DNA of 64,000 bases from Alloascoidea hylecoeti (lineage: Eukaryota). The position numbers were made by a program, and so were the translations under genes. Positions 2,913 through 64,000 of this stretch are shown in pieces; the first letter of the stretch is position 1; each line of letters starts with the position of its first letter. The stretch is taken from contig BCKZ01000003.1 of NCBI GenBank assembly GCA_001600815.1, positions 1,103,474 to 1,167,473 on the forward strand, written 5' to 3'. The notes under the pieces are model-generated. The model saw nothing but the letters and a program-made list of their open reading frames with translations, did not search any database and was not told the origin of the DNA.

Positions 2913-4499
2913 TTAATATCCCTGGTAGTCTCCGTCGAGGTCAAAATAATTAAATGTATCATCTTGTTGTGGATGAGAAGTTAAAACAGGTTGAGAATTT
3001 ATAGAAACGGTTGTTTCAATAGGTTGTGGAATTGAATGAGTACTCATCCTAACTAATTTTCTCTTTCCAAATGCTAAAACAGGTGAAGATGTTGGAAGTG
3101 ATGTTGATGATATCTCACTACGAGAATTCGAACTTTCTGGTCTATAGTTAACCGTTGTTTGACTTGAATTTAAATTTGAAGTAGAAAGTAATAATGGTAA
3201 AGGATTTTGTCGATTATTTGAAATCATATTATCTGGAAATAAATTTCTAAATGGAATTAACCCAGTTTCTCTCCACCTTGATACAATTGCATGTGGTGGG
3301 AATGCAGCTTTCCTTGCACTACTTAAAGTTGTTAACCATTCTTGTTTATCTGTTTTATTTCTTTTAACATCTAATTGTTCTTCATCTGTGGGTATATTAA
3401 AAAATTGATCAAAATTTCCAAATGATAAAAGTTTTAAAGGATGAACAAGATGTAAAATTCTGTATGGTATTCTTAAGAAACAAACATTATTATTCATACA
3501 TCTTTCAAAAAATTCAAGTTTCATATTTGATCCAAATATAATTAATCTAATATCCTTATCTGATGAAAATGTATCTTGATTTATATTTGAATGTTCATTA
3601 AATATAACATCAAACCAATGTATTGGAACTCCAGAATTTTCCCATCCTTTAACACTTGCAATAAAAGTCCAATCAGAATAAGAGTCTTTTGGTAACCAGT
3701 TTGGTAATACTGTAACATCTTTAAACATTATGTATGGAGGTAATGTGGCTCCAGTACCTGAAATACACTCAACAAGCGTTAGGTTCACAGATCTTCCTTT
3801 TTTTGTAGAATTTAAATCAGAATTATTACTTTGGCTTTGACTTCGACTTTGGCTTCTACTTTGACTTGAAGAATCATTTATAGAAAGAGATGTTTCTGTT
3901 GGGGAATTTTCATTACTAACAATTTTCCATGTTCCTGAAGATTCTTGAATTGAAAAATCAAAATCACACATACTGTAAATATCTTTTTCTTTAATTTTAA
4001 ACTTAGAAATAAGTCCAGAATATGCTAAAGAGAATTGTTGAAGAAGTTGGAATTGATCAATAGAAATTGTTTGTTTTTTCTTCTCTAATGCAGTCACAAC
4101 GATCCCTTTCAATTGAGGATGCCTTTTAAAGAACCTATTTATCCAATGCTGTCCAAGAGCCCTAGTTGTACTCACATCCTCTCTAATATCTCCAGATTTT
4201 CTCCTCATTATCTCAACAGCAAAACCTTTAACTTCATCATATGAAACCTTATAGCCAGCCATTCCCAATTGGGTAATAACTTCAACTAATAGGCATTCTT
4301 CAGCTTCAGATAAAAGTTGACTATGAGCTATAGCTTTCCGATGAGATTTATGATTATATCTGATTCTTCCAAATAAGGTACTATAAGGGACATTATTTTT
4401 AACAGCTGCATCTTTTATGGATTTGTATTTACCTGATTTAAGTTCGGTTTCTGCTTTTTCAAGGGAGGCTTGCTCATCATCAGTTAATCTTCGAGACAT
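2913..4499 (-). CDS. pogo/Fot1 (CENP-B/Pdc2-type) transposase-derived protein: HTH_psq, CENP-B-type HTH and degenerate DDE_1 domain; probably domesticated
   Basis: SIKDAAVKNNVPYSTLFGR (psq HTH); LSEAEE...LGQHWINRFFKRHP (Tc5/CENP-B HTH); LTLVECISGTGATLPPYIMFK, SVKGW and WRETGLIPF (DDE_1). Catalytic motifs are altered: SMCDFD for NMDETG, LIIFGS for LILDGH, HPLKL for QPLD. Confidence 0.85.
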   Translation of the reverse strand: MSRRLTDDEQASLEKAETELKSGKYKSIKDAAVKNNVPYSTLFGRIRYNHKSHRKAIAHSQLLSEAEECLLVEVITQLGMAGYKVSYDEVKGFAVEIMRRKSGDIREDVSTTRALGQHWINRFFKRHPQLKGIVVTALEKKKQTISIDQFQLLQQFSLAYSGLISKFKIKEKDIYSMCDFDFSIQESSGTWKIVSNENSPTETSLSINDSSSQSRSQSRSQSQSNNSDLNSTKKGRSVNLTLVECISGTGATLPPYIMFKDVTVLPNWLPKDSYSDWTFIASVKGWENSGVPIHWFDVIFNEHSNINQDTFSSDKDIRLIIFGSNMKLEFFERCMNNNVCFLRIPYRILHLVHPLKLLSFGNFDQFFNIPTDEEQLDVKRNKTDKQEWLTTLSSARKAAFPPHAIVSRWRETGLIPFRNLFPDNMISNNRQNPLPLLLSTSNLNSSQTTVNYRPESSNSRSEISSTSLPTSSPVLAFGKRKLVRMSTHSIPQPIETTVSINSQPVLTSHPQQDDTFNYFDLDGDYQGY

Positions 4500-9000: not shown

Positions 9001-9445
9001 TACGTAAACAATTATATTGAGTATCGGTCAACGAAAGAGAAGGAGTAAATTTCTTAAACACATTAATATATCGATACCCAGCTAATCCTAACATTAATCT
9101 TGCAATCAATATTGGGTCCATATTGGTCAAACTANNNNNNNNNNNNNNNNNNNNNNNNNNNNNNNNNNNNNNNNNNNNNNNNNNNNNNNNNNNNNNNNNN
9201 NNNNNNNNNNNNNNNNNNNNNNNNNNNNNNNNNNNNNNNNNNNNNNNNNNNNNNNNNNNNNNNNTAGTTTGACCAATATGGACCCAATATTGATTGCAAG
9301 ATTAATGTTAGGATTAGCTGGGTATCGATATATTAATGTGTTTAAGAAATTTACTCCTTCTCTTTCGTTGACCGATACTCAATATAATTGTTTACGTATA
9401 ATTACACTCTTAGAACAGTTCACTAAAGGGTTGATTGGCTTTTTG
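8954..9445. repeat. 181-bp inverted repeat arms (8954-9134 and 9265-9445) flanking a 130-N assembly gap
   Basis: The arms are reverse complements ending exactly at the gap edges. The ORF track shows the same peptide on both strands. Confidence 0.9.
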
Positions 9446-25274: not shown

Positions 25275-26870
25275 TCATGGTGTTATTTTTTCTCTGCCTA
25301 TTACAGTAAGATCCACCAGAGAAACATTAAGCTTGTTTCCTATTTTATAAGTTTCAAATTGAATTTTTAAGGTACCAATACCTCTAACGCTACCAACGTT
25401 ACCCACATAGTTCTTCAACAAACCAACGGAGACGCTATTTTCAGGATTTATGAATTTTTTTATGTTCTCCCCTGAAGTTGGTTGATCTGTGGTCTTTAAA
25501 AAGCAACCGGCTGCCCTTATAATGATATCTGATACATGTGTAAGAGTCGACAAATTACTATTTAAATTGAACCAAACATAACCATTTGAGTACTTTGCAA
25601 TTGAATCCGGTAAAAATATGAAATCCCTATTGTCTCGGATTATTTTTATTAAATTATTCCATACTTTCAAAGGAATTCCAAACGATTGTAATTTAGGACA
25701 GGCAAAATTCTTGGGATCCTTTGAACAATAAATTATTATATCTGAAACAAAAAAAGAATCCAATTGACTCCCCTCAGGATACCTAACTCCTAACTTAAAT
25801 ATTTCCGTAGGTTTTAAACTTCCTTTAGGTTTAGAAGTATCTGAACTATTTATATCCTTTAAGCTTGGAGTGGCTGTTATAAAATACTTATCCATCTTCG
25901 GGTTGTCTGGATAAAAAACACCTCTTAGTGTTGGCAGAATTTTGTTATTTTTATATTTAACCAAATAAACATCACTTTTTAGAACTACCACTGTTGGTTG
26001 TTGCTGCACAGATTCACCGGGGGAAGATTGAGAAGCTTGTATATTAGTTTGAGTAGTTCGAGGGTTAAGCTCGCACTTAATAACATTTCCGACAATGCCT
26101 CCTGGCTGGTTAACAGCCGAATTAACAATATCTTTTTTATCGTTTACGTTTATAACTGAGTTATTGGGTGGAATCGACTTTTGATTGTATGTTGTCTGAG
26201 TGAGGTTCATAGAAAATGGGCCAGATTCACTGGTAGATGAACTAACACTACTTGAACTATCATCGCTATAATCATCCATACGTAAGATGTCATAATCGTT
26301 CAATTCTGAATCTTGATCATAATCAAATAACAAATTATTTACATGCTTGGGTATGTCACTTAGCTCATTCTCGAGTTCATTATTAATGTCGATCTTTCTA
26401 TAACTTAATTTCGTACTATTCTTAACATTTTTCTCGATCAAAAGAATTGTTTCTTCGTATGACTTCGAACTTTCTTTTGCAGTGAGCCATATATTCCAAA
26501 GTTCTGGAGAATCTTTTAACCAATAAGGAAGATAATAATTCATTTTTACAAAATCGGGAATACATTCACCAATTGAATCAGAAAGCTTGAAAACTTGATT
26601 AGCTCGACGATTGAAACTTTCGAATGCATGCTGAGAAAATGAAAGATCAATCCTTTCGTCTAGTAGACAAATGGTCATAGAGAGAATCAAGCTTTTAGTG
26701 GTCTTAGATATATTATCCTTGGAAAAGTTCGAGTCTGAGCTCAAAAATGAAGTCGATTGCAATGGTTTCGATGTTCTTGCAATGAGAGAAACAGTCTCTT
26801 TAATCTCTTCTAATTCTCGAATTAACCCCAATAAAAGTTCATCTGTAGGTAAGGCAGAATCAGCAGACAT
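25275..26870 (-). CDS. Orphan protein, copy A: N-terminal domain resembling Ty1/copia Gag capsid (UBN2-like), acidic/Ser linker and unknown C-terminal domain
   Basis: Intact 531-aa ORF and tandem paralog of 27486-29033. The Gag resemblance (FESFNRRANQVFKLSDSIGECIPDFVKMNYYL...PELW...KSYEETILLI) is pattern recognition only. Confidence 0.75.
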   Translation of the reverse strand: MSADSALPTDELLLGLIRELEEIKETVSLIARTSKPLQSTSFLSSDSNFSKDNISKTTKSLILSMTICLLDERIDLSFSQHAFESFNRRANQVFKLSDSIGECIPDFVKMNYYLPYWLKDSPELWNIWLTAKESSKSYEETILLIEKNVKNSTKLSYRKIDINNELENELSDIPKHVNNLLFDYDQDSELNDYDILRMDDYSDDSSSSVSSSTSESGPFSMNLTQTTYNQKSIPPNNSVINVNDKKDIVNSAVNQPGGIVGNVIKCELNPRTTQTNIQASQSSPGESVQQQPTVVVLKSDVYLVKYKNNKILPTLRGVFYPDNPKMDKYFITATPSLKDINSSDTSKPKGSLKPTEIFKLGVRYPEGSQLDSFFVSDIIIYCSKDPKNFACPKLQSFGIPLKVWNNLIKIIRDNRDFIFLPDSIAKYSNGYVWFNLNSNLSTLTHVSDIIIRAAGCFLKTTDQPTSGENIKKFINPENSVSVGLLKNYVGNVGSVRGIGTLKIQFETYKIGNKLNVSLVDLTVIGREKITP

Positions 26871-27485: not shown

Positions 27486-29033
27486 CTACTGCTCATTTAT
27501 TATTATATTTACACTGCTTGTTATTGTAAGACCAACAAGAGAAACATTAAGCTTGTTTCCAGTGTTATACGTCTCGATTTGAATCTTTAAGGTACCAATA
27601 CCTCTGACGCTACCAACTTTAACCAAATAGTCCTTCAACAAACCAACGGATGCGCTATTTTCAGGTTTTATGTACTTTTGTATTTCCTCCGCTGAAGTTG
27701 GTGGGACTATAGTCTCTAAGCTCAAACTGCATACCCTTATATTGATATCTGACACAGGCTTAATATTAGACTTATTCAGATTGCTATCTGAATTGAACCA
27801 AACATAATTATCTGTTCTCTTTGATATTGAAACTGTTGTATCTAAAAACTCAAATCCTCTACATTTTCGGATCATATTTATTAAATTATTCCACTGTTTC
27901 AAAGGAATTCCAAAATATTGTATTTTTAAAGGATGGAACAAACTCTTGGGAATTGGAGAATAAATTATTACATCTGAAACAAAAAAAGAATCTAATTGAC
28001 TCCCTTCGGGATATTTAACCCCCAGTTCATATATTTTTATAGGGATAAGAGATCCAGTACCAAGTGAAGCATTTGAACTATTTATATCCTTTAAGCTTGG
28101 AGTGGCTGTTACAGAATACTTATTCATCTTTGCGTTGTCTGAATAGAAAACACCTTTCAGTGTTGGGAAAATTTTGTTATTATGATTCTTAACCAAATAA
28201 ACATCACTTTTTAAAACTAAGCCTGATGGTTGTTGCTCTAGGGAAGATTGGGTAGTTTGGGTAGTTTGAGTAGCCTGAGGCTTAAGGTCATCTTTAGACT
28301 TCATACCATCTGTGGAAGTACTTCCTTGGCGATTAGAACTAGTATTAACAATTTTATTTGTATTGTTGAAATCTGATTTATTGGGTTGGTTCTGGTTAAA
28401 CTTAATGCTACTTGAACTACCATCGCTATAATCATCTAAAGGCGAGATATTATGATCAGGTGAATCTGAATCATGATCACCATCAAATGACAGATTATTA
28501 TCATGCTTGGATATTTCACCTAGATCCTTCTCGAGTTCATTATTAATGTCGATCTTTCTATAACTTAATTTCGTACTATTCTTAACATTTTTCTCGATCA
28601 AAAGAATTGTTTCTTCGAATGACTTCGAACTTTCTTTTGCAGTGAGCCATATATTCCAAAGTTCTGGAGAATCTTTTAACCAATAAGGAAGATAATAATT
28701 CATTTTTACAAAATCGGGAATACATTCACCAATTGAATCAGAAAGCTTGAAAACTTGATTAGCTCGACGATTGAAACTTTCGAATGCATGCTGAGAAAAT
28801 GAAAGATCAATCCTTTCGTCTAGTAGACACATGGTCATAGAGAGAATCAAGCTTTTAGTGGTCTTAGATATATTATCCTTGGAAAAGTTCGAGTCTGAGC
28901 TCAAAAATGAAGTCGATTGCAATGGTTTTGATGTTCTTGCAATGAGAGAAACAGTCTCTTTAATCTCTTCTAATTCTCGAATCAACCCCAATAAAAGTTC
29001 ATCTCCAGGCGATGGGGCAGAATCGATAGACAT
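27486..29033 (-). CDS. Orphan protein, copy B (tandem paralog of 25275-26870)
   Basis: ATG at 29033 (MSIDSAPSPGDELLL..) aligns with the start of copy A. Bases 28528-29003 are nearly identical to 26368-26843. Confidence 0.75.
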   Translation of the reverse strand: MSIDSAPSPGDELLLGLIRELEEIKETVSLIARTSKPLQSTSFLSSDSNFSKDNISKTTKSLILSMTMCLLDERIDLSFSQHAFESFNRRANQVFKLSDSIGECIPDFVKMNYYLPYWLKDSPELWNIWLTAKESSKSFEETILLIEKNVKNSTKLSYRKIDINNELEKDLGEISKHDNNLSFDGDHDSDSPDHNISPLDDYSDGSSSSIKFNQNQPNKSDFNNTNKIVNTSSNRQGSTSTDGMKSKDDLKPQATQTTQTTQSSLEQQPSGLVLKSDVYLVKNHNNKIFPTLKGVFYSDNAKMNKYSVTATPSLKDINSSNASLGTGSLIPIKIYELGVKYPEGSQLDSFFVSDVIIYSPIPKSLFHPLKIQYFGIPLKQWNNLINMIRKCRGFEFLDTTVSISKRTDNYVWFNSDSNLNKSNIKPVSDINIRVCSLSLETIVPPTSAEEIQKYIKPENSASVGLLKDYLVKVGSVRGIGTLKIQIETYNTGNKLNVSLVGLTITSSVNIIINEQ

Positions 29034-38210: not shown

Positions 38211-38560
38211 GTCGACGTACTTCAGTAAGTATCTACCCCTACGTTTTAACATCCTGTATGGATAAAACACTCAGAACATTAATTTTGGCTAACAAATTCT
38301 ATAGTAGGATCATTTCTATAGTTTACGTCTCTCTTTGACTCTTCAAAAGAGCCATCGAATCCAACTTGGTTGATGATATATTTCCTTCATGCCCTAGAGT
38401 GAGAATTTTTTTTAGCTTGTCTAATCCTTTGTGGTTATGACATCTGAATTTTTCCTTTTTAGAACTTTGTTCTTCATAAAGGCGCGATGATCTCGGCCCT
38501 TTTCATGAGCCTTTTTGGAGGAGTTGATCTGGGTGGGTGTGAATGGTAGTCTGACAAGTT
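38211..38560 (+). ncRNA. SNR17: U3 snoRNA with spliceosomal intron (intron 38225-38304)
   Basis: GTCGACGTACTTCA|GTAAGT...GCTAAC...TAG|TAGGATCATTTCTATAG (boxes A'/A), CTCTTTGACTCTTCAAAAGAGCC, AACTTGGTTGATGA (C'), AGAGTGAG (B), GCGATGATCT (C), AGTCTGACAAGTT (D plus terminal stem). TATATAAA at 38171. Confidence 0.96.
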
Positions 38561-48621: not shown

Positions 48622-51600
48622 CTAAGTCCTATGACTAAATACAAAAAAGTTCTTAATTGTCTCAATTTTCTTTAATCTTTTTAATGATTTGATTTCCTTC
48701 TTTACTCTCAATGTATCAGGTTTTCTTTCTCCTAAGAGACTTTCGTATCCTTTACATGATTCATCTAACAAAATCACGGCTTTGGTATATTGTCCTAAAC
48801 GACTATAGACAACCCCTAGTCTTTCTTTTATTTTAAAGATATCAAGTAGGTTTTCGGTCAATTTATCTGCATACCCTGTAATCACCCCTTCCAATAATTG
48901 TTTGGCCTCCTTATATCTTCGTTGGTGAACATATACCCCAGCAATATGATAGTTGATTGTTAAGGGTAGAATAAATTGGTTCACCTTAAACCGATTGCAT
49001 CTCATCAGTGCACTTTTATAATGTTTCAAGGCTTCATCATAATCTTTAACTTTATCAAATGCCATACCCATATTATCTATGACGGAAACTGTATTGGGAT
49101 GATTTGGTCCAAATAGTTCCTCATATCCTTTCACAGATTTTTGAAAATATTCCATTGCTCTCTTTGGTTGCTTCAATTCTGTATAAACTAGTCCAATTCC
49201 ACTCAATGAATCCAACTTTGCAGAATTCTTATAACCTAAGCTATCAAATCCTTCTAAACTACGTTCCAAAAACTTTTTAGCGGTGTCATAATCGCCTCGT
49301 CTCCAGTATGTAAATCCAATATCTTTTATAATTCTTAATGTAGTTGGATGTTTATCCCCTAAATATTTCTCTCTATTAGTAAGTGCTTGTTTCAGGCTTT
49401 TGAGGGCTGAGTTATATTCACTTTGCTTTAAGTATGCTTGCCCTATATTTTCAAAAATTGTCGAAACATTCGGAAGTCTAGAGCTTGTAGAATCTTCATA
49501 ACCATCAAGAGCCTCTGTGAATAGTTTGAGCGCCTTTCGGGTATGCCCCATTTCATTGTATAAAGTCCCCAGAGTTATTAATGCAGCCAAAGTATTTGGA
49601 TGTGTTTTGTTAAATAATCGATTAAACTCATAATGGGCTCTTTTAAGAAGCTCTTCTGCTCTCATATATTCGGATCTAATGAGATATATTTTTCCAATGT
49701 TTAACATTGCAAATGCTAAATCCGTACTTTGTGGAATATTTTCAAGCCCCTTTAATGCACGCTGTAACATAATCATTGCTTTATCAAATTCTTCTAAACG
49801 ATGGTAGCTTATCCCAGCTACCAATACACAATGAAGAGTCTTTGTATGAGTTTCACCCAATGAATCTTCATAACCATTAATCGCTTGTAATGATAATTCT
49901 AATGACCTTTTATAATCTCCAAGACTTTGATAAATTGATCCAAGATCTCCAATAATTTTTAAAACCTTTGGATGACCATCACCAAAAATCTTTTTTTGAT
50001 ATGTTAATGTTTTCTCTAATCGAGTTTTAGCTTCTTCATATTCTCCAAGTCTCCATTCTAACATTCCTAAACACTCAATGGCTTTTAAAGTAGCTGGGTG
50101 CTCTTCTCCATATAATTCTTCAAACATGGAATTTGCTTTTATTAATAATGTATATGATTTTTTATATTCCCCTAATATTATATAAAGTTCACCTAAACTT
50201 AATAAAGTGTCAATAGTATCAGGGTTATCATCTCCAGAAACCAATCTATAACTCTCAAGAGATTCTGTTAATAACGTCATGGCATCCTTGTAATTCCCAA
50301 TATCTTTATAAAGAAGTCCGAGAGTTTTCCTATCTGTTATTGTTTCTAGATGAGAATCACCCAAGTGTAAAGTCGATCTTGCAACAACATCTTGAAGAAG
50401 CATTAAAGATTGCTCGTAATTCCCAAGATTTTTATATAAAGATCCTAAATATCGTTGAACTGCAAGAGATGCTGGATCATGTATACCAGAGTTATGTTCG
50501 CGTCCTTTTAATGCTTTTTTGTATAACTCGAGTGCTTCGGTATACCTTCCAAGGAAGTAGTACGATGATGCAAGCCCTTCCTCTGCTTTTATTGTATTAA
50601 TATTATTCGTTTCATATTCATAAATTATTCTATAACGGTTCAACAGTTTTTCGAAGATTATTGAAGCCTGATGATACAAGCACAGTTGTGCCAAGCAAGT
50701 AGCTATTTTTCCAAGTCCATGTAATAATTCCTCATCCCAAGTCTCTGAAAATATTTCGTCAGCGACTTTTAAAACAGCCACTATGTGTGGATATATACTG
50801 ATCCAGTATCTTCTTTCGGTGGTGGGATCACCTGTTGATAAAATTTCAGAAATAATCATCACTGCTATTCTTCCATACAATAACGTTTGCGTTTCATCTA
50901 ATCGTGACCTAATCCATCTATGAATAACCGGATGTACCATTAGTATTAGGGTTTTATCTTCGGAATTGCTGGTAATATAAGCTAATGAATATATTTGCAA
51001 TTCATGGACTGCATTATCGTATAAGCTTTCATCTTCTAACCATCCAATAAACTTGCCACCATGTTTTTGAACTAGTGGCTTTGTGATATTGAGGTTATGA
51101 AAGAATGAAAATAAATTTAAAACATGCCAAGCGTTTGCAGATAAGCTTTTATATGGAACCAAAAATGTTAAATCAATGGCATCTTTTTGACCGATTAAAT
51201 TTTTTTGGAAAAGAAATTGATCATCTTGTTCTAGTTTTTCCTTATATTTAGTAAATGAACTCAGATTCGCAGAAATATTAGCACCAACAATTTCTAAAGC
51301 CATTGGATAATTATTCAGCATTTGAGAGATACCTTTTGCTGCACTTAATTCATCAGCGCTTAAATCAGATTTCATTTGATCAGAAGCTTTTAATAATAAT
51401 TCAACACCAGTATCAATTCCTGGATCATCAACTTTTATACAAGTGCCAATACTCCTGGCAAAAAAATTACTACCTTTAGATCTAGAGGTTATGATCACTT
51501 TACCCCAGTCACAACTGGGGAATCGAAATGTCTCTTTTAATGTTTTATAGTTAAAGTTCGGATCGTTCATATTATCAACAATAATAAGCCAATTCTTATT

Positions 51601-52551
51601 CTTTGGGTTTGCGAACCAATAATGTATTGCTTTCGGTAAAATATCATCATAATATTTGTCTTCTTTGATACCAAAAGCCCAATCCATAACACCTACCAAA
51701 ATCCCTCGCGAATCATTGTTGATCTTTAATTTTCCTTCATTATCCACAAGCCATGGCATTCCGAACTTTTTACCAATCTTGGCATAATCATCTGTTTCGA
51801 TTTTAGAAATATAATATGCAACGATTTTTTCCATTGCATCCCTAATACTACTCCTTAAACTTTGTTCATCATGAGCATCTATCCAAAGAATACTATCATA
51901 TATATCCTTTTTGGCACACCTAAATGCATATTCCAAAGCGATCTGCGATTTACCAATGCCACCTATTCCTTCTAGTATTATATAAGTTCTCCCACTGGTT
52001 TCATTTAATAATGAAGACATATATTCTAATATTTCTTCCCTTCCAGAAAAGTTCATATTTTGTAAAAATGGGATAAGACACCCCAACTTAAAATCATCTT
52101 CCCAAGGAACATCCTCTTGAACATAAAGCAGATCATCAACGAATTCTATGAACTTATCTGTATATTCTACAACATCAGTTGCCATTGTTGTCAAATAAGT
52201 CCTATCTTTTTCCCATTCTGTTCGTTTAACAAAATGTGGAGTATTTGAATTATATTCAATATTTCCATTAAGATCTGCATCGGCATAATAGATGAATAGC
52301 TTATTAGCTTTATGCATTCTAATCTGAACTGGTCTTAATAGAGTTATTGCCATTTTTGCATCATCTTCATCAAGCATAGCAATTTTTTCTTTATATTTAT
52401 CCAACCTATAGGAAGACTCGGAAAAGCTTACAAATAGGTCGATTATTCGGTTATCCATTTGTCTTCCTTCATTAAACCTTGCGTTAACATTACTAACACC
52501 AGCCATTACCAGTTCCAATAGTTTAACAACATCGAGATTTGCGCTAGACAT
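48622..52551 (-). CDS. Fungal NLR-like STAND protein: helical HeLo-like N-terminus, NB-ARC and TPR array
   Basis: FSGREEIL, Walker A GIGGIGKS, Walker B WLIIVDNMND, VIITSR, YPMALEIVG, MVHPVIH. From about aa 610 there are many ~42-aa TPRs with G.xHP.TL linkers. Intronless. Confidence 0.93.
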   Translation of the reverse strand: MSSANLDVVKLLELVMAGVSNVNARFNEGRQMDNRIIDLFVSFSESSYRLDKYKEKIAMLDEDDAKMAITLLRPVQIRMHKANKLFIYYADADLNGNIEYNSNTPHFVKRTEWEKDRTYLTTMATDVVEYTDKFIEFVDDLLYVQEDVPWEDDFKLGCLIPFLQNMNFSGREEILEYMSSLLNETSGRTYIILEGIGGIGKSQIALEYAFRCAKKDIYDSILWIDAHDEQSLRSSIRDAMEKIVAYYISKIETDDYAKIGKKFGMPWLVDNEGKLKINNDSRGILVGVMDWAFGIKEDKYYDDILPKAIHYWFANPKNKNWLIIVDNMNDPNFNYKTLKETFRFPSCDWGKVIITSRSKGSNFFARSIGTCIKVDDPGIDTGVELLLKASDQMKSDLSADELSAAKGISQMLNNYPMALEIVGANISANLSSFTKYKEKLEQDDQFLFQKNLIGQKDAIDLTFLVPYKSLSANAWHVLNLFSFFHNLNITKPLVQKHGGKFIGWLEDESLYDNAVHELQIYSLAYITSNSEDKTLILMVHPVIHRWIRSRLDETQTLLYGRIAVMIISEILSTGDPTTERRYWISIYPHIVAVLKVADEIFSETWDEELLHGLGKIATCLAQLCLYHQASIIFEKLLNRYRIIYEYETNNINTIKAEEGLASSYYFLGRYTEALELYKKALKGREHNSGIHDPASLAVQRYLGSLYKNLGNYEQSLMLLQDVVARSTLHLGDSHLETITDRKTLGLLYKDIGNYKDAMTLLTESLESYRLVSGDDNPDTIDTLLSLGELYIILGEYKKSYTLLIKANSMFEELYGEEHPATLKAIECLGMLEWRLGEYEEAKTRLEKTLTYQKKIFGDGHPKVLKIIGDLGSIYQSLGDYKRSLELSLQAINGYEDSLGETHTKTLHCVLVAGISYHRLEEFDKAMIMLQRALKGLENIPQSTDLAFAMLNIGKIYLIRSEYMRAEELLKRAHYEFNRLFNKTHPNTLAALITLGTLYNEMGHTRKALKLFTEALDGYEDSTSSRLPNVSTIFENIGQAYLKQSEYNSALKSLKQALTNREKYLGDKHPTTLRIIKDIGFTYWRRGDYDTAKKFLERSLEGFDSLGYKNSAKLDSLSGIGLVYTELKQPKRAMEYFQKSVKGYEELFGPNHPNTVSVIDNMGMAFDKVKDYDEALKHYKSALMRCNRFKVNQFILPLTINYHIAGVYVHQRRYKEAKQLLEGVITGYADKLTENLLDIFKIKERLGVVYSRLGQYTKAVILLDESCKGYESLLGERKPDTLRVKKEIKSLKRLKKIETIKNFFVFSHRT

Positions 52552-54059: not shown

Positions 54060-54130
54060 GCGTTAGTGGTTTAGCGGTAAAATTCTTCGTTGCCATCGAA
54101 GAGCCCCCGGTTCGACTCCGGGCTGACGCA
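54060..54130 (+). tRNA. tRNA-Gly(GCC), intronless
   Basis: Acceptor GCGTTAG/CTGACGC+A, anticodon arm CTTCG-TTGCCAT-CGAAG, T-arm CCCGG-TTCGACT-CCGGG, followed by a T5 terminator. Confidence 0.97.
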
Positions 54131-55559: not shown

Positions 55560-56799
55560 ATGCTTCTGAAATTTATAGGCATTACTTTTATCATTAGCTT
55601 TGCTTCTGCAGATTCTTGTGCTGAGTTGTACTATCAATGTGGTGGTAAGTAATCTCCTTTCACAATTTCAATCCTACTGTTGAAATATTAATATGAATTC
55701 GCAAATTAACAATTCGCTAGGTTCAAACTGGTCGGGTGCTACATGCTGTGCTACTGGTACTTGCTCATCTCAAAACCCATATTATTATCAATGTGTTGCA
55801 ACTTCAGGTGCTACTAACGTAGATGCTGCTTCTGCAGCCGCTACACAACAAACTTCAACAGTTGCTGTTCAGCAAGAGACCACAATCTCTAGTACCATTC
55901 AGCAGGAAGCAACAACAAGTGTAGTTGTTCAACAGCAAGAAACAACGCAAGCTGGAGATAGTTATGGTACTACTCAATATGGAGAAGATATTAGTTATTC
56001 TACCATGGCTGCTAAACAGACAACGGTAGTTGAAGAATCAGAGAATGCGGAAACAACTGCAACAATTCAGGTACAAGCTGATACGACGTCAGCTACCAGT
56101 ATAACCAACGCTGTAAAGGATATTACAGTTTCTTCTGATACAACTGCACAAGCTGCTGCAACTACAACTTCAGAGGCTGTTGCCACTACATCATCATCAA
56201 ATGGTGTTACTACATCTGCTGCTACCACTGAAGTTGACAATGGAACTTCAAGCTTCTCTCTCACTGCTTACCCAGGCGAGGACGAATATGCTGATTGTAC
56301 TGAAGTCTATGCTACATGTGGTGGTAGTGCCTACTCTGGACCAACATGTTGTTATTATGGAAGCTACTGCTCAACAGTAAATGAAGCTTATGCTCAATGT
56401 TCTCCAACTTCAATTGTCAATTCTGTTGAAACTGCCGCTGTTACACAAGATGGTGCTGCATCTTCAAGCCGGGATTGGTATTATGGTCGCGGTACCTATT
56501 GGGGACCTTCAGATGGTAATGCTTGTCAAATGAAGAATGGTTACAATGATGAATCTATGGTTGTTGCTATTGGTATTGATACTTATGAAGCAGGTAATTT
56601 AAGCAGCACTTACGTTAGTGACTACTGTGGTAGAAAAATTAGAGCTTGGTATGGAGAGAAATATGTTGATGTTACTGTGATNGATGCTTGTGGTTCGTGT
56701 GACAAGTATAGTCTTGACTTTTCACCCAGTGCTTTTAATACACTGGCATCATCTAATGATGGTGTTATTGGTATTGTTTGGACATTCACTGATGAGTAG
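55560..56799 (+). CDS. Secreted CBM1-linker-CBM1-DPBB (expansin/loosenin-like) protein, copy 1; intron 55645-55720
   Basis: Signal MLLKFIGITFIISFASA; CBM1 CAELYYQCG|GSNWSGATCC..NPYYYQC; second CBM1 YATCGGSAYSGPTCC..AYAQC; RlpA-like DPBB GRGTYW..NAC..VVAI..CGRKI..VTVxDAC..LDFSPSAF. Confidence 0.9.
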
Positions 56800-58089: not shown

Positions 58090-59229
58090 ATGCTTCTGAA
58101 ATTTATAGGCATCACTTTTATCGTTGGCTTTGCTTCGGCAGATTCTTGTGCTGAATTATACCAACAATGTGGTGGTAAGTATTAGACATAAAAATATATT
58201 ACTATTATTTTTAACATTAACAATCCTAATTCGTAATACTTAGGCTCAAGCTGGACGGGTGCTACATGCTGTGCTACTGGTACTTGCTCATCGCAAAACT
58301 CATATTATTATCAATGTGTTTCAACTTCAGGTGCTACTAACATAGATGCTGCTACACAACAAACTTTAACAGTTGCTGTTCAGCAAGAGACCACAATCTC
58401 TAGTACCATTCAGCAGGAAACAACAACAAGTGTAGTTGTTCAACAGCAAGAAACAACGCAAGCTGGAGATAGTTATGGGACTACTCAATACGGAGAAGAT
58501 ATTAGTTATTCTACCATGGCTGCTAAACAGACAACGGTAGTTGAAGAATCAGAGAGTGTAGGAACTACAGCAACTTCACAAGCTGCTGCAACTACAACTT
58601 CAGAGGCTGTTGCCACTACATCGTCATCAAATGGTGTTACTACATCTGCTGCTACCACTGAAGTTGACAATGGAACTTCAAGCTTCTCTCTCACTGCTTA
58701 CCCAGGCGAGGACGAATATGCTGATTGTACTGAAGTCTATGCTACATGTGGTGGTAGTGCCTACTCTGGACCAACATGTTGTTATTATGGAAGCTACTGC
58801 TCAACAGTAAATGAAGCTTATGCTCAATGTTCTCCAACTTCAATTGTCAATTCTGTTGAAACTGCCGCTGTTACACAAGATGGTGCTGCATCTTCAAGCC
58901 GGGATTGGTATTATGGTCGCGGTACATATTGGGGACCTTCAGATGGTAATGCTTGTCAAATGAAGAATGGTTACAATGATGAATCTATGGTTGTTGCTAT
59001 TGGTATTGATACTTATGAAGCAGGTAATTTAAGCAGCACTTACGTTAGTGACTACTGTGGTAGAAAAATTAGAGCTTGGTATGGAGAGAAATATGTTGAT
59101 GTTACTGTGATNGATGCTTGTGGTTCGTGTGACAAGTATAGTCTTGACTTTTCACCCAGTGCTTTTAATACACTGGCATCATCTAATGATGGTGTTATTG
59201 GTATTGTTTGGACATTCACTGATGAGTAG
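58090..59229 (+). CDS. Secreted CBM1-CBM1-DPBB protein, copy 2 with shorter linker; intron 58175-58243
   Basis: Same signal peptide and intron position as copy 1. The 3' ~650 nt are nearly identical to copy 1. Confidence 0.9.
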
Positions 59230-60846: not shown

Positions 60847-61869
60847 ATGACTACTAAGAAAATCACTTTCTCTCTTAACTGGGAAGCTACTCCTTATCAT
60901 ATTCCAATTTACCTGGCTCAACATCGTGGTTATTTTAAAGAGAATGATTTGGACATCGCAATTTTGGAACCGGGAAATCCTTCAGATGTTACTGAACTCA
61001 TTGGATCTGGCAAGGTTGACATGGGATTAAAAGCCATGATTCATACCCTAGCTGCTAAAGCCCGTGGTTTTCCAGTAACCTCTATTGGTTCTCTATTGGA
61101 CGAACCGTTTACTGGTGTTCTATACTTGGAAGGATCTGGAATCACCACTGATTTTCAATCATTGAAAGGTAAAAGAATTGGTTACGTGGGTGAGTTTGGT
61201 AAAATTCAATTGGATGAATTGACTAAACATTACGGAATGACTCCTGATGATTATATTGCAGTTAGATGTGGTATGAATGTTGCTAGATATATCATAGAAG
61301 GAAAGATCGATGGTGGAATTGGTATCGAATGTGTTCAACAAGTTGAGCTTGAAGAATTTTTGAGATCTGAAGGTCGCGATATTAATGAAGCTAAAATGTT
61401 GAGAATTGATAAACTCGCTGAATTAGGATGCTGTTGTTTCTGTACTATTTTGTACATTGCAAATGATAACTTCTTAGCCGCAAATCCTACTGTCGCTCCA
61501 AGATTCATGAAAGCAATTAAGAAGGCCACCGACTTTATTATTCAGGAACCAAGGGATGCATATGATGAGTATATTGCTATAAAGCCACGTATGGCATCGG
61601 TTTTGAACCAAAGAATATTCGAAAGATCATTTGCTTATTTCTCAGAGTCTTGTTATAATGTTCACCGTGATTGGAGAAAAGTTACTAATTATGGAAAAAG
61701 ATTGGAAATTGTTCCTCAAGATTTCAAATCTAACTATACCAATAAATATTTGTCATGGCCTGAACCAGAAGAAGTTAAGGATCCTTTGGATGCTCAAAGA
61801 CAAATGTTTGATCATCAAGATCTTTGCAAGTTTAATGGTGGTTGCAGAAGATTAAAACTTTCTTCATAA
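60847..61869 (+). CDS. THI5: HMP-P synthase (Thi5/Nmt1 family)
   Basis: [49 protein letters not shown]. Confidence 0.97.
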
Positions 61870-63558
61870 ATTACTTTATAACGCTATACCGCAGATTAGC
61901 GATAAGGCATTATTTTGGAAATTTCAGTCAAGTTTATAAATAAATATATGAATATAAATATAGGTGGATAAGTATATTTATGATTATCTATGTATAAAAA
62001 TAATATAAATGAGAAATATATAAAATATGATAGGTTTGAAGATAAATAGTTAGTGATTATAATATGAATAACTGGGTTGTTACATTTATGAAATATCAAT
62101 CGAAGTATTACAAGCTCTCTATTTATTCATGGCAATTTATATCCTGGAATGAAGTTTAATTATAAGTAAATTAATAATATGAATGATAACAAGATTGCCT
62201 ATAAACTTATACCACATACAATAATTATAGTGTAGTTATAGTGTATTTAATTACAACTATATCCTACCATTATTATGAGTAATGATTGCCGGCCGTGGAT
62301 ATTGGGGGGCCACATATGCTGACTGTCCCAGATAATCAAATAATTATGTTGTAGGAACTATATTAGCGGCAGAGATTAGCAGTTCCACTCCTAATTCCCT
62401 ATGTTAGAAATATTCGGTATTTTCTTTTTCGGCATAAGGGGACTAACGGTTCCGCATCGGGTGATACAATACTCCGTATTTCCTTTGGGTATATTTGGTG
62501 GGTTAGTCAAAAATTTGGAGGTTGTTGATCATAGAAAACAAAAAGTTCGGTGTTCAAATAATAGTCGAATGTTCTAACCAAAAGAATAGGAAATACTAAT
62601 ACTGAACTTTATTCCTTCTCCCTAAAAAAGAGCTAATTTGGAGTAGAAACACTATATATAATTAGTGCTACATATTTATATATGATAGTACTTTATAATT
62701 ATTATACGGTGATCAATTAATAGCAATTAATATTACAAGTCCGAATAAATGCAATCTAAAGCTCGAGTATTCTGCGGTTGCATACGTATAAAGTTGTAAA
62801 ATATAATGCTAAGATAAATTTTAGTTAATTCTAAAGGTCATGGAATTGCTATTAATTTAAAAAATCAACATGGGAGAAATTTTATTGTCCATAGCCTCAG
62901 CTAAAGTCATTTATAGAGGTACAAAAGTCATCGTCATTATAATCATGCTAATGATGAGTGTAATGCATGTTCTGTATTCAATTCAAAACGGTTCGAATTC
63001 ATGCAATTGCAATGGATGGTAGATCAAAGATAAAGATGCACTGCCTGTAGATATATTGTTTGCAGTGGCTATTATAACGTAAGCGCAACAACTGAGATGA
63101 GTTGAACTTTGTAATTCTTACAATTGGTGAAGATAACCGGCACATGTGAGATGCATATAATGGAGGTTACATAATTACCGAGTATTCTATGAAGCTAAAA
63201 TATGTTGAGGAAGCCGTTGAAGACAGAATAGACAGTGACCACATATTAAACAAAGTCATTGAATGTTGATGATGAATATAGAATATAATTATAGAATGGC
63301 CAATTTTAGTATCTCAGAAAGTCCAAAAACGTCACAAACAAGTTAGAAATGGAAATGCAAATTTACTAAATTTAACCACCACCAGGAAAATTATAATAGA
63401 CGCAGACAAAATAATATTAAAAATGTTGTTGCCTTTAGGACCAACTAGAACTTTTCTTGAGATATAAAACTCCACGGTTTCCATCACTGGGGTGCTTTTT
63501 GTTCCTTTCTACCATATATACATTACTTGTCCTAACTCAATCATTAATTACAACTATC

Positions 63559-64000
63559 ATGGCGACTGCAACTATTGATGTCGTTAGACTACTAGAGATA
63601 GTACTAAATGGTGTTAGTGCTATTAATACCAAGGTTAAAGAAGCAAGACAGATGGATAATCGTGTAATCGATTTGTTGGTGAGCTTTACTGAATCTTCTT
63701 ATCGTTTAGAAAAATATAGGACGAAAATTGATAATTTAGATGAAGATGATGCAAGAATGGCTATGAACTTACTAAGGCCGGTCCAAACGCGAATAGTTCA
63801 GGCAAATGAATTATTTTTATATTATTGTGGTGAGGATTTGGACCCAAACACAACCGATGATGCCGATTTTGAATCAAAGGCGCCAAGATTTGTAAAACAG
63901 ACGAAATGGGATAGGGATAGAGAATATCTAACAACTATGGCAGCTGATGTTGTTAAATATACAGATAATTTCATAAAATTTATGGATGATCGGCAAAAAG
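63559..64000 (+). CDS. 5' part of a paralog of the NLR N-terminal (HeLo-like) domain; truncated by the window edge
   Basis: MATATIDVVRLLEIVLNGVSAINTKVKEARQMDNRVIDLLVSFTESSYRLEKY...LLRPVQTRI...PRFVKQTKWDRDREYLTTMAADVVKYTDNFIKFMDD aligns residue by residue with aa ~1-140 of the 48622-52551 protein. It is not in the ORF track because no stop is reached. Confidence 0.9.
   Translation, partial: MATATIDVVRLLEIVLNGVSAINTKVKEARQMDNRVIDLLVSFTESSYRLEKYRTKIDNLDEDDARMAMNLLRPVQTRIVQANELFLYYCGEDLDPNTTDDADFESKAPRFVKQTKWDRDREYLTTMAADVVKYTDNFIKFMDDRQK

Follow-up and report, generated by a model that had tools for sequence, protein, structure and literature searches.

The window analyzed here, a stretch of 64,000 nucleotides, ends inside a gene whose N-terminal domain is a true paralogue of the N-terminal domain of a nearby NLR. 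The stretch at the edge (63559..64000, + strand) is a genuine start of a protein-coding gene (hereafter gene 2), and its neighbor, NLR1 (48622..52551, − strand), is an intact 1309-aa NB-ARC/TPR NLR whose first 140 aa form the other copy of the domain. The duplication that separates the two copies is old; for most of their history since then both have remained coding sequence, with purifying selection acting on the domain in each. We rate this find as a known kind of system, the NLR family, in an unexpected lineage and with a new N-terminal domain.

Paralogous N-Domains Under Purifying Selection

Gene 2 starts with an ATG and runs for 147 codons (63559..63999, + strand), in a frame still open at the window end (64000); at the base composition of the window, the chance of 147 codons staying open is about 9e-6. 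These codons encode the helical N-terminal domain (aa 1–144) and the first 3 residues of a linker. A TATAAAA (63463..63469, + strand), placed 90 bases ahead of the ATG, may be a TATA element, by consensus match only. Across four public runs no indels were seen in gene 2, and the sole strain difference seen inside the ORF, a T>C at 63954 in runs X3 and X4, is synonymous (Val132) by hand reading of the frame.

The original prediction held that the edge ORF aligns with the N-terminus of the NLR, and the alignment bears this out: against the first 184 aa of NLR1, 86 of 144 residues are identical (60%) and 114 of 144 positive (BLASTP E 2e-64, one 4-residue gap), and every motif string quoted in support lies within it. 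The two proteins begin at the same aligned position, with the start codon conserved, and identity is highest in the helices (50–78%) and lowest in the loop at residues 90–103 (21%). Similarity ends at the motif F[MV]DD, after which gene 2 reads DDRQK and NLR1 reads DDLLYV, so that the divergence directly after the domain, also predicted, is found just where the linker of NLR1 begins. In NLR1 the domain spans 52132..52551 (− strand, aa 1–140), and the start codons of the two genes are 11,007 bases apart, in agreement with the spacing of 11 kb and the divergent orientation first reported. Searches of the window with both proteins and three outside relatives (tblastn) returned no further copies beyond these two.

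Over the 140 aligned codons, the Nei–Gojobori estimates were dN 0.25 and dS 1.8, the latter near saturation, for a dN/dS of 0.14. The uncorrected pN/pS was 0.31 (bootstrap 95% interval 0.23–0.42), with 0 of 2000 resamples reaching 1, and identities at the three codon positions were 72, 82, and 53%. Conservation in two copies had been taken as a sign of a functional domain, a view that these ratios uphold; the dN/dS near 1 named as the mark of a decaying duplicate is not what the comparison gave.

NLR1 as a Fungal NB-ARC/TPR NLR

Judged from sequence, NLR1 is a real NLR with a NOD clearly homologous to those of fungal NB-ARC/TPR NLRs, because it combines Walker A, LIIVDN, IITSR, and MHD-like motifs with NOD homologues and TPR matches. 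The NOD module (50872..52059, − strand; about aa 165–560) carries the Walker A sequence GIGGIGKS (P-loop, aa 195–202), LIIVDN, IITSR, and an MHD-like MVHPVIH, and in an alignment with Rhizina undulata NLRs all four stand in register with the corresponding motifs. The TPR array (48682..50692, − strand; about aa 620–1290) matches TPR_12 at E 1.4e-101 and TPR_10 at E 7.1e-80. Against the Pfam cut-offs of 23.5 bits for NB-ARC and 27 bits for DUF7779, NLR1 scores 22.4 and 21.3 bits, respectively, both just below, and such weak scores could be a reason why profile-based surveys might miss it.

Residues 140–620 of NLR1 were searched against proteins of 719–2291 aa, and 211 of 6018 candidates matched at E ≤ 0.001, many of them with PF00931 and PF25000. 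After P0007, which is the C-terminal piece of NLR1 itself, the best matches were NB-ARC/TPR NLRs assigned by their source to Rhizina undulata (28–31% identity, E 1e-43 to 9e-48), five of which have a HeLo domain. NLR1 pairs in a quick tree with P0002, a relative described below (SH-aLRT 94), inside a clade with Rhizina NLRs (SH-aLRT 95), on long branches and with deviant composition. No second NLR1-like NOD from the same species was present among the 211 hits of 719–2291 aa, where the only close match was P0007, and the other assembly is fragmented.

That other public assembly splits NLR1 into P0001 (274 aa) and P0007 (1045 aa), which lie on one 12,078-base contig and are separated by a 1-base frameshift. 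The frame of P0001 switches exactly at an A6 run (51825–51830, − strand; codons 241–243 of NLR1), as if one A were missing. Either a true disabling polymorphism or an error in sequencing the homopolymer would account for the frameshift.

Relatives of the N-Domain

By sequence searches, the N-domain, at about 145 aa, is an orphan that is otherwise found almost nowhere. Pfam gave no match to it at E ≤ 0.1 and no relevant family at E ≤ 10 in five of five members, and the top matches of a profile search of PDB sequences were unrelated proteins (best E 0.024). Among 1.84 billion representative proteins, HMMER returned 6 hits at E ≤ 0.001, four of which we judged real (P0001–P0004), each a singleton cluster without a name. 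The remaining two, P0005 and P0006, were set aside: they matched in 8 and 9 short stretches, and P0005 is a long tandem-repeat protein.

The four real relatives differ in extent. P0001 is the N-terminal 274 aa of NLR1 itself, from the other assembly, and P0003 is a 60-aa fragment that is 64% identical to gene 2 residues 82–137. P0002 (423 aa) has the N-domain followed by a NOD-like region; it aligns with NLR1 aa 6–367 at 32%, and its N-domain is 38% identical to that of gene 2. P0004 (170 aa, E 7.9e-11, 28% identical), from another source, consists of the N-domain only and ends 13 residues past it. The family therefore holds, by its own members, two architectures, N-domain plus NOD (NLR1 and P0002) and N-domain only (P0004), with the domain followed by a NOD in two (NLR1 and P0002) of the three other relatives whose length allows a judgment. 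The linker of gene 2 starts with the charged DDRQK and is more like the KERRIEQEK of P0002 than the tail of P0004. P0002 itself, which comes from another source, seems to be an NLR that is degenerate or in decay; where the Walker A pattern GxxGxGKS would be expected (residues ~205–215) it has GNNNISQRQ, and it ends mid-NOD.

The product of gene 2 was sought in protein collections as well, where a search for longer proteins gave only P0001 among 451 candidates and a search among proteins of near length gave none among 9. In metagenome contigs, 573 pattern matches based on a 2-sequence alignment included no relative of the N-domain, and an exact 41-base pattern from the window end had 0 matches.

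Predicted Fold and Candidate Identities

AlphaFold2, run on a 5-sequence alignment, predicts the gene 2 domain to be a four-helix bundle (helices 3–28, 34–51, 62–89, and 104–144; pLDDT 76.2, pTM 0.69). The N-terminal helix is the most hydrophobic 19-residue stretch in three of four members. Foldseek of the model against the PDB returned 0 matches at E ≤ 0.001. In VIA-align against 48,161 chains, the best 50 matches include the potato Rx CC domain (4m70, Z 10.7), AtMLKL3 (6ka4, Z 9.9), MLKL (6ux8, Z 9.8; 4btf, Z 9.6), and the NRG1.1 CC-R domain (7l7v, Z 8.7); unrelated bundles do equally well (IncA, Z 10.7; designed proteins, Z 10–10.6), and Z values under about 13 are common for helical bundles. 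The likeness of the predicted structure to MLKL and plant CC domains is thus no closer than its likeness to helical bundles in general. No HET-S HeLo chain was among the top 50 structural matches, a result with which a HeLo fold is still compatible.

A HeLo identity was also followed at the level of sequence. For gene 2, the nearest clusters in a language-model Atlas were HeLo (0.94, 165 shared features) and PigL_N/SesA (0.91–0.93), with two of the ten best named hits sharing a family and the family assignment flagged as probably wrong; for P0004 the best named hit was DUF3907 (0.76), and the HeLo lead of gene 2 was not reproduced. HeLo (PF14479), HeLo-like PigL_N (PF17111), and SesA (PF17107) gave no Pfam match to the N-domain at E ≤ 10 in five of five members, and hhalign of the N-domain against the Rhizina HeLo regions gave a probability of 1% (E 0.055). 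Co-located weak hits of the family HMM on the last helix of six Rhizina N-domains (E 0.05–3.6, from a search of 126 proteins) were dropped because, in the reverse HMM test, the true members scored no higher than 2000 shuffled sequences. Likewise unsupported was an apparent MAFFT match of the N-domain to the first 20 residues of P0022, a protein in which hhalign found only the NOD. An effector or execution domain of the HeLo/MLKL/CC kind is accordingly suggested by the position of the N-domain in an NLR together with a compatible, non-discriminating predicted fold, and not by homology.

A Further Partial Copy in the Genome

Contigs of the four public runs (X1, a wood-decay metagenome; X2–X4, isolates) were mapped on the window, and they show that the genome has a second, nearly identical copy of the stretch that begins at about 63825/63848 and extends at least 251 bases beyond the window. 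None of the ten public runs listed as containing the sequence is from RNA. The contig covering 61778–63877 is single-copy, with a depth of 9.6 in X1 and of 58.8 in X4; X2 and X3 each cover it with two contigs (depths 9.1 and 5.9 in X2, 21.5 and 23.9 in X3). From 63848 to about 64251, 251 bases beyond the window, a 404-base contig follows at about double the flanking depth in all four runs (21.5 in X1, 11.4 in X2, and 115.5 in X4; the 40.4 of X3 is a last-bin depth). The start of this contig, at about twice single-copy depth, makes 63848..64000 (+ strand) the part of gene 2 that is common to a second locus.

In X2, X3, and X4, another contig fits the window from about 63825, and the 213 bases before that point do not resemble it. 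By hand reading of a 30-letter consensus, this other copy has a TAA at the codon-80 position in the frame of gene 2 and no in-frame ATG before the equivalent of Met127. The double depth and the contigs with different 5' sequence therefore indicate a third locus, which shares about residues 90–231 of gene 2 and differs from it on the 5' side. This locus may represent a truncated copy or a gene-conversion tract, or else an exon with an intron in front of it. In X1 only, a contig matches gene 2 as far as 63741, beyond which it runs on into unrelated A+T-rich sequence; it is absent from the three isolate runs and may be a variant or the copy of a relative.

Genomic Context

The window points to a budding yeast chromosome with the standard code, because of the best solved matches of its THI5 gene (595 bits to the solved C. 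albicans THI13 and 570 bits to S. cerevisiae THI5, 338 residues, ~80% identity by hand count), the CTG codon that this gene has at a conserved leucine, and its yeast housekeeping genes (Sen54, a septin, a CTLH-RING protein, MKT1, a VIT/CCC1 transporter, a CAP protein, and an MFS transporter). ORFs are long and intron-free. G+C is 24–36% throughout, and the NLR genes, at 0.32–0.33, match the rest of the window; since both share the local composition, they look native.

Between NLR1 and gene 2 lie a tRNA-Gly(GCC) (54060–54130, + strand), two tandem CBM1/DPBB ORFs (55693–56799 and 58516–59229, + strand) with an identical C-terminal stretch of ~230 aa, and the THI5/NMT1 gene (60847–61869, + strand). 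THI5/NMT1 has ~3–4 times single-copy depth and several variant contigs in all runs, and belongs to a family with multiple copies, as it does in S. cerevisiae. The longer of the tandem ORFs (55693–56799), the sole one scanned, has CBM_1 and DPBB_1 (expansin-like) domains; a CBM1 protein is unusual for a yeast. Each of the two ORFs contains a single N at the same relative place (56682 and 59112). Elsewhere in the window are a DDE_1 transposase-like ORF (2913–4499, − strand), a scaffold gap of 130 N (9135–9264), two adjacent paralogous ORFs of 531 and 515 aa with near-identical N-terminal thirds and no Pfam match (25275–26870 and 27486–29033, − strand), and a fungal U3 snoRNA gene (38288–38559, + strand; 174.8 bits).

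What Gene 2 May Be

The account of gene 2 that we favor, to which we give somewhat less than an even chance, is that it continues past the window as a second member of a small NLR family, with N-domain, linker, NOD, and repeats. In its favor are the NOD that follows the domain in NLR1 and P0002 and the likeness of the linker start to that of P0002. In that case a loose NLR cluster, produced by an old duplication, would occupy the locus. In such proteins, ligand sensing by the repeats would drive oligomerization of the NOD, and the oligomerized NOD would gather the N-terminal helical bundles into a module for output or execution, as happens with HeLo, CC, and MLKL-type domains. What we infer here takes in all that follows residue 147 of gene 2 and also the activity of the domain. 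It is also conceivable, with perhaps a third of our confidence behind it, that gene 2 encodes a short stand-alone N-domain protein of ~160–230 aa, maybe derived from an NLR by truncation, which acts with or beside NLR1; it may, for example, be recruited through like-with-like contacts between helical domains, or serve as a decoy or regulator. The 170-aa P0004 provides a family member of exactly this make-up, although it is only 28% identical, comes from another source, and is possibly incomplete. Purifying selection on the domain alone is compatible with a stand-alone protein, and the lack of a second NLR1-like NOD among the 211 hits is weak evidence in the same direction. Against it, NLR1 has no short amyloid-type motif with which to template a separate effector, and the HET-S/NWD2 mechanism is therefore not applicable.

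A recently disabled or mosaic remnant, in which an intact N-domain would be joined to a body cut short or rearranged as NLRs disappear from this yeast lineage, seems unlikely to us. Signs of decay are seen in four other loci or fragments of the family (the frameshift between P0001 and P0007, the P-loop and early end of P0002, the fragment P0003, and the closed frame upstream of the extra copy), and a duplication or conversion boundary falls inside the N-domain coding region, at about 63825–63848. Gene 2 itself, however, has kept 147 codons open despite a saturated dS, with its start codon conserved and no indels in the four runs; any disabling must therefore be recent or lie downstream.

NLRs in Yeasts and Comparison With Known Systems

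Budding yeasts have figured in the literature as lacking NLRs. A fungal NLR survey states that none was present in 38 Saccharomycotina genomes (PMC4986451), another text describes the genomes without NLRs as "largely Saccharomycotina" (PMC5658179), and a third mentions that no NLR was found in unicellular yeasts (PMC9815663). Our full-text search for a yeast NLR, in literature outside subscription journals and supplements, found only statements of absence. This absence had been read as a link between NLRs and multicellularity. The most far-reaching picture is that a budding yeast keeps a small, partly decaying NB-ARC/TPR NLR family at three or more loci, with an orphan four-helix N-domain; that gene 2 is functional; that the domain is a cell-death or membrane-acting output module; and that yeasts, contrary to the surveys, are not entirely NLR-free. 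Taken as a whole, with all of its parts, we regard this picture as rather doubtful. If the genes are functional, NLR-based regulated cell death or non-self sensing would become testable in a genetically tractable unicellular fungus, and a new N-terminal domain family would join the NLR repertoire; if they are decaying, they offer a rare snapshot of NLR loss.

Among known systems, MLKL and the plant CC and CC-R (RPW8-like) domains share with the N-domain a four-helix bundle in the predicted model, with no likeness in sequence signal. Paired sensor/helper NLRs of plants stand head to head, in divergent orientation. Gene 2 and NLR1 have this orientation and a common N-terminal domain type, but they are not adjacent and have no common intergenic promoter region; with four other genes between them, the sensor/helper pair that the original prediction proposed is a poor fit.

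The HET-S/NWD2 and HELLP-type systems resemble this locus in having a gene for an NLR-type N-domain close to one for an NLR. In HET-S/NWD2, as described in PMC9815663, the NLR carries only a short N-terminal amyloid motif that matches a C-terminal motif of the effector, and the globular domain is carried by the effector. Here, instead, both genes carry the same globular domain, 11 kb and four genes apart, and the analogy first drawn to HET-S/HELLP is not supported for NLR1, which bears the whole globular domain in place of a short templating motif. The HeLo (PF14479) NB-ARC/TPR NLRs of Rhizina undulata (P0013, P0014, P0016, P0017, and P0019) differ from the family described here in an N-domain of ~240–290 aa, as against ~145 aa, and in a HeLo sequence signal that is theirs alone; they have the same order of parts, a helical N-domain followed by a NOD and TPR_10/12 repeats.
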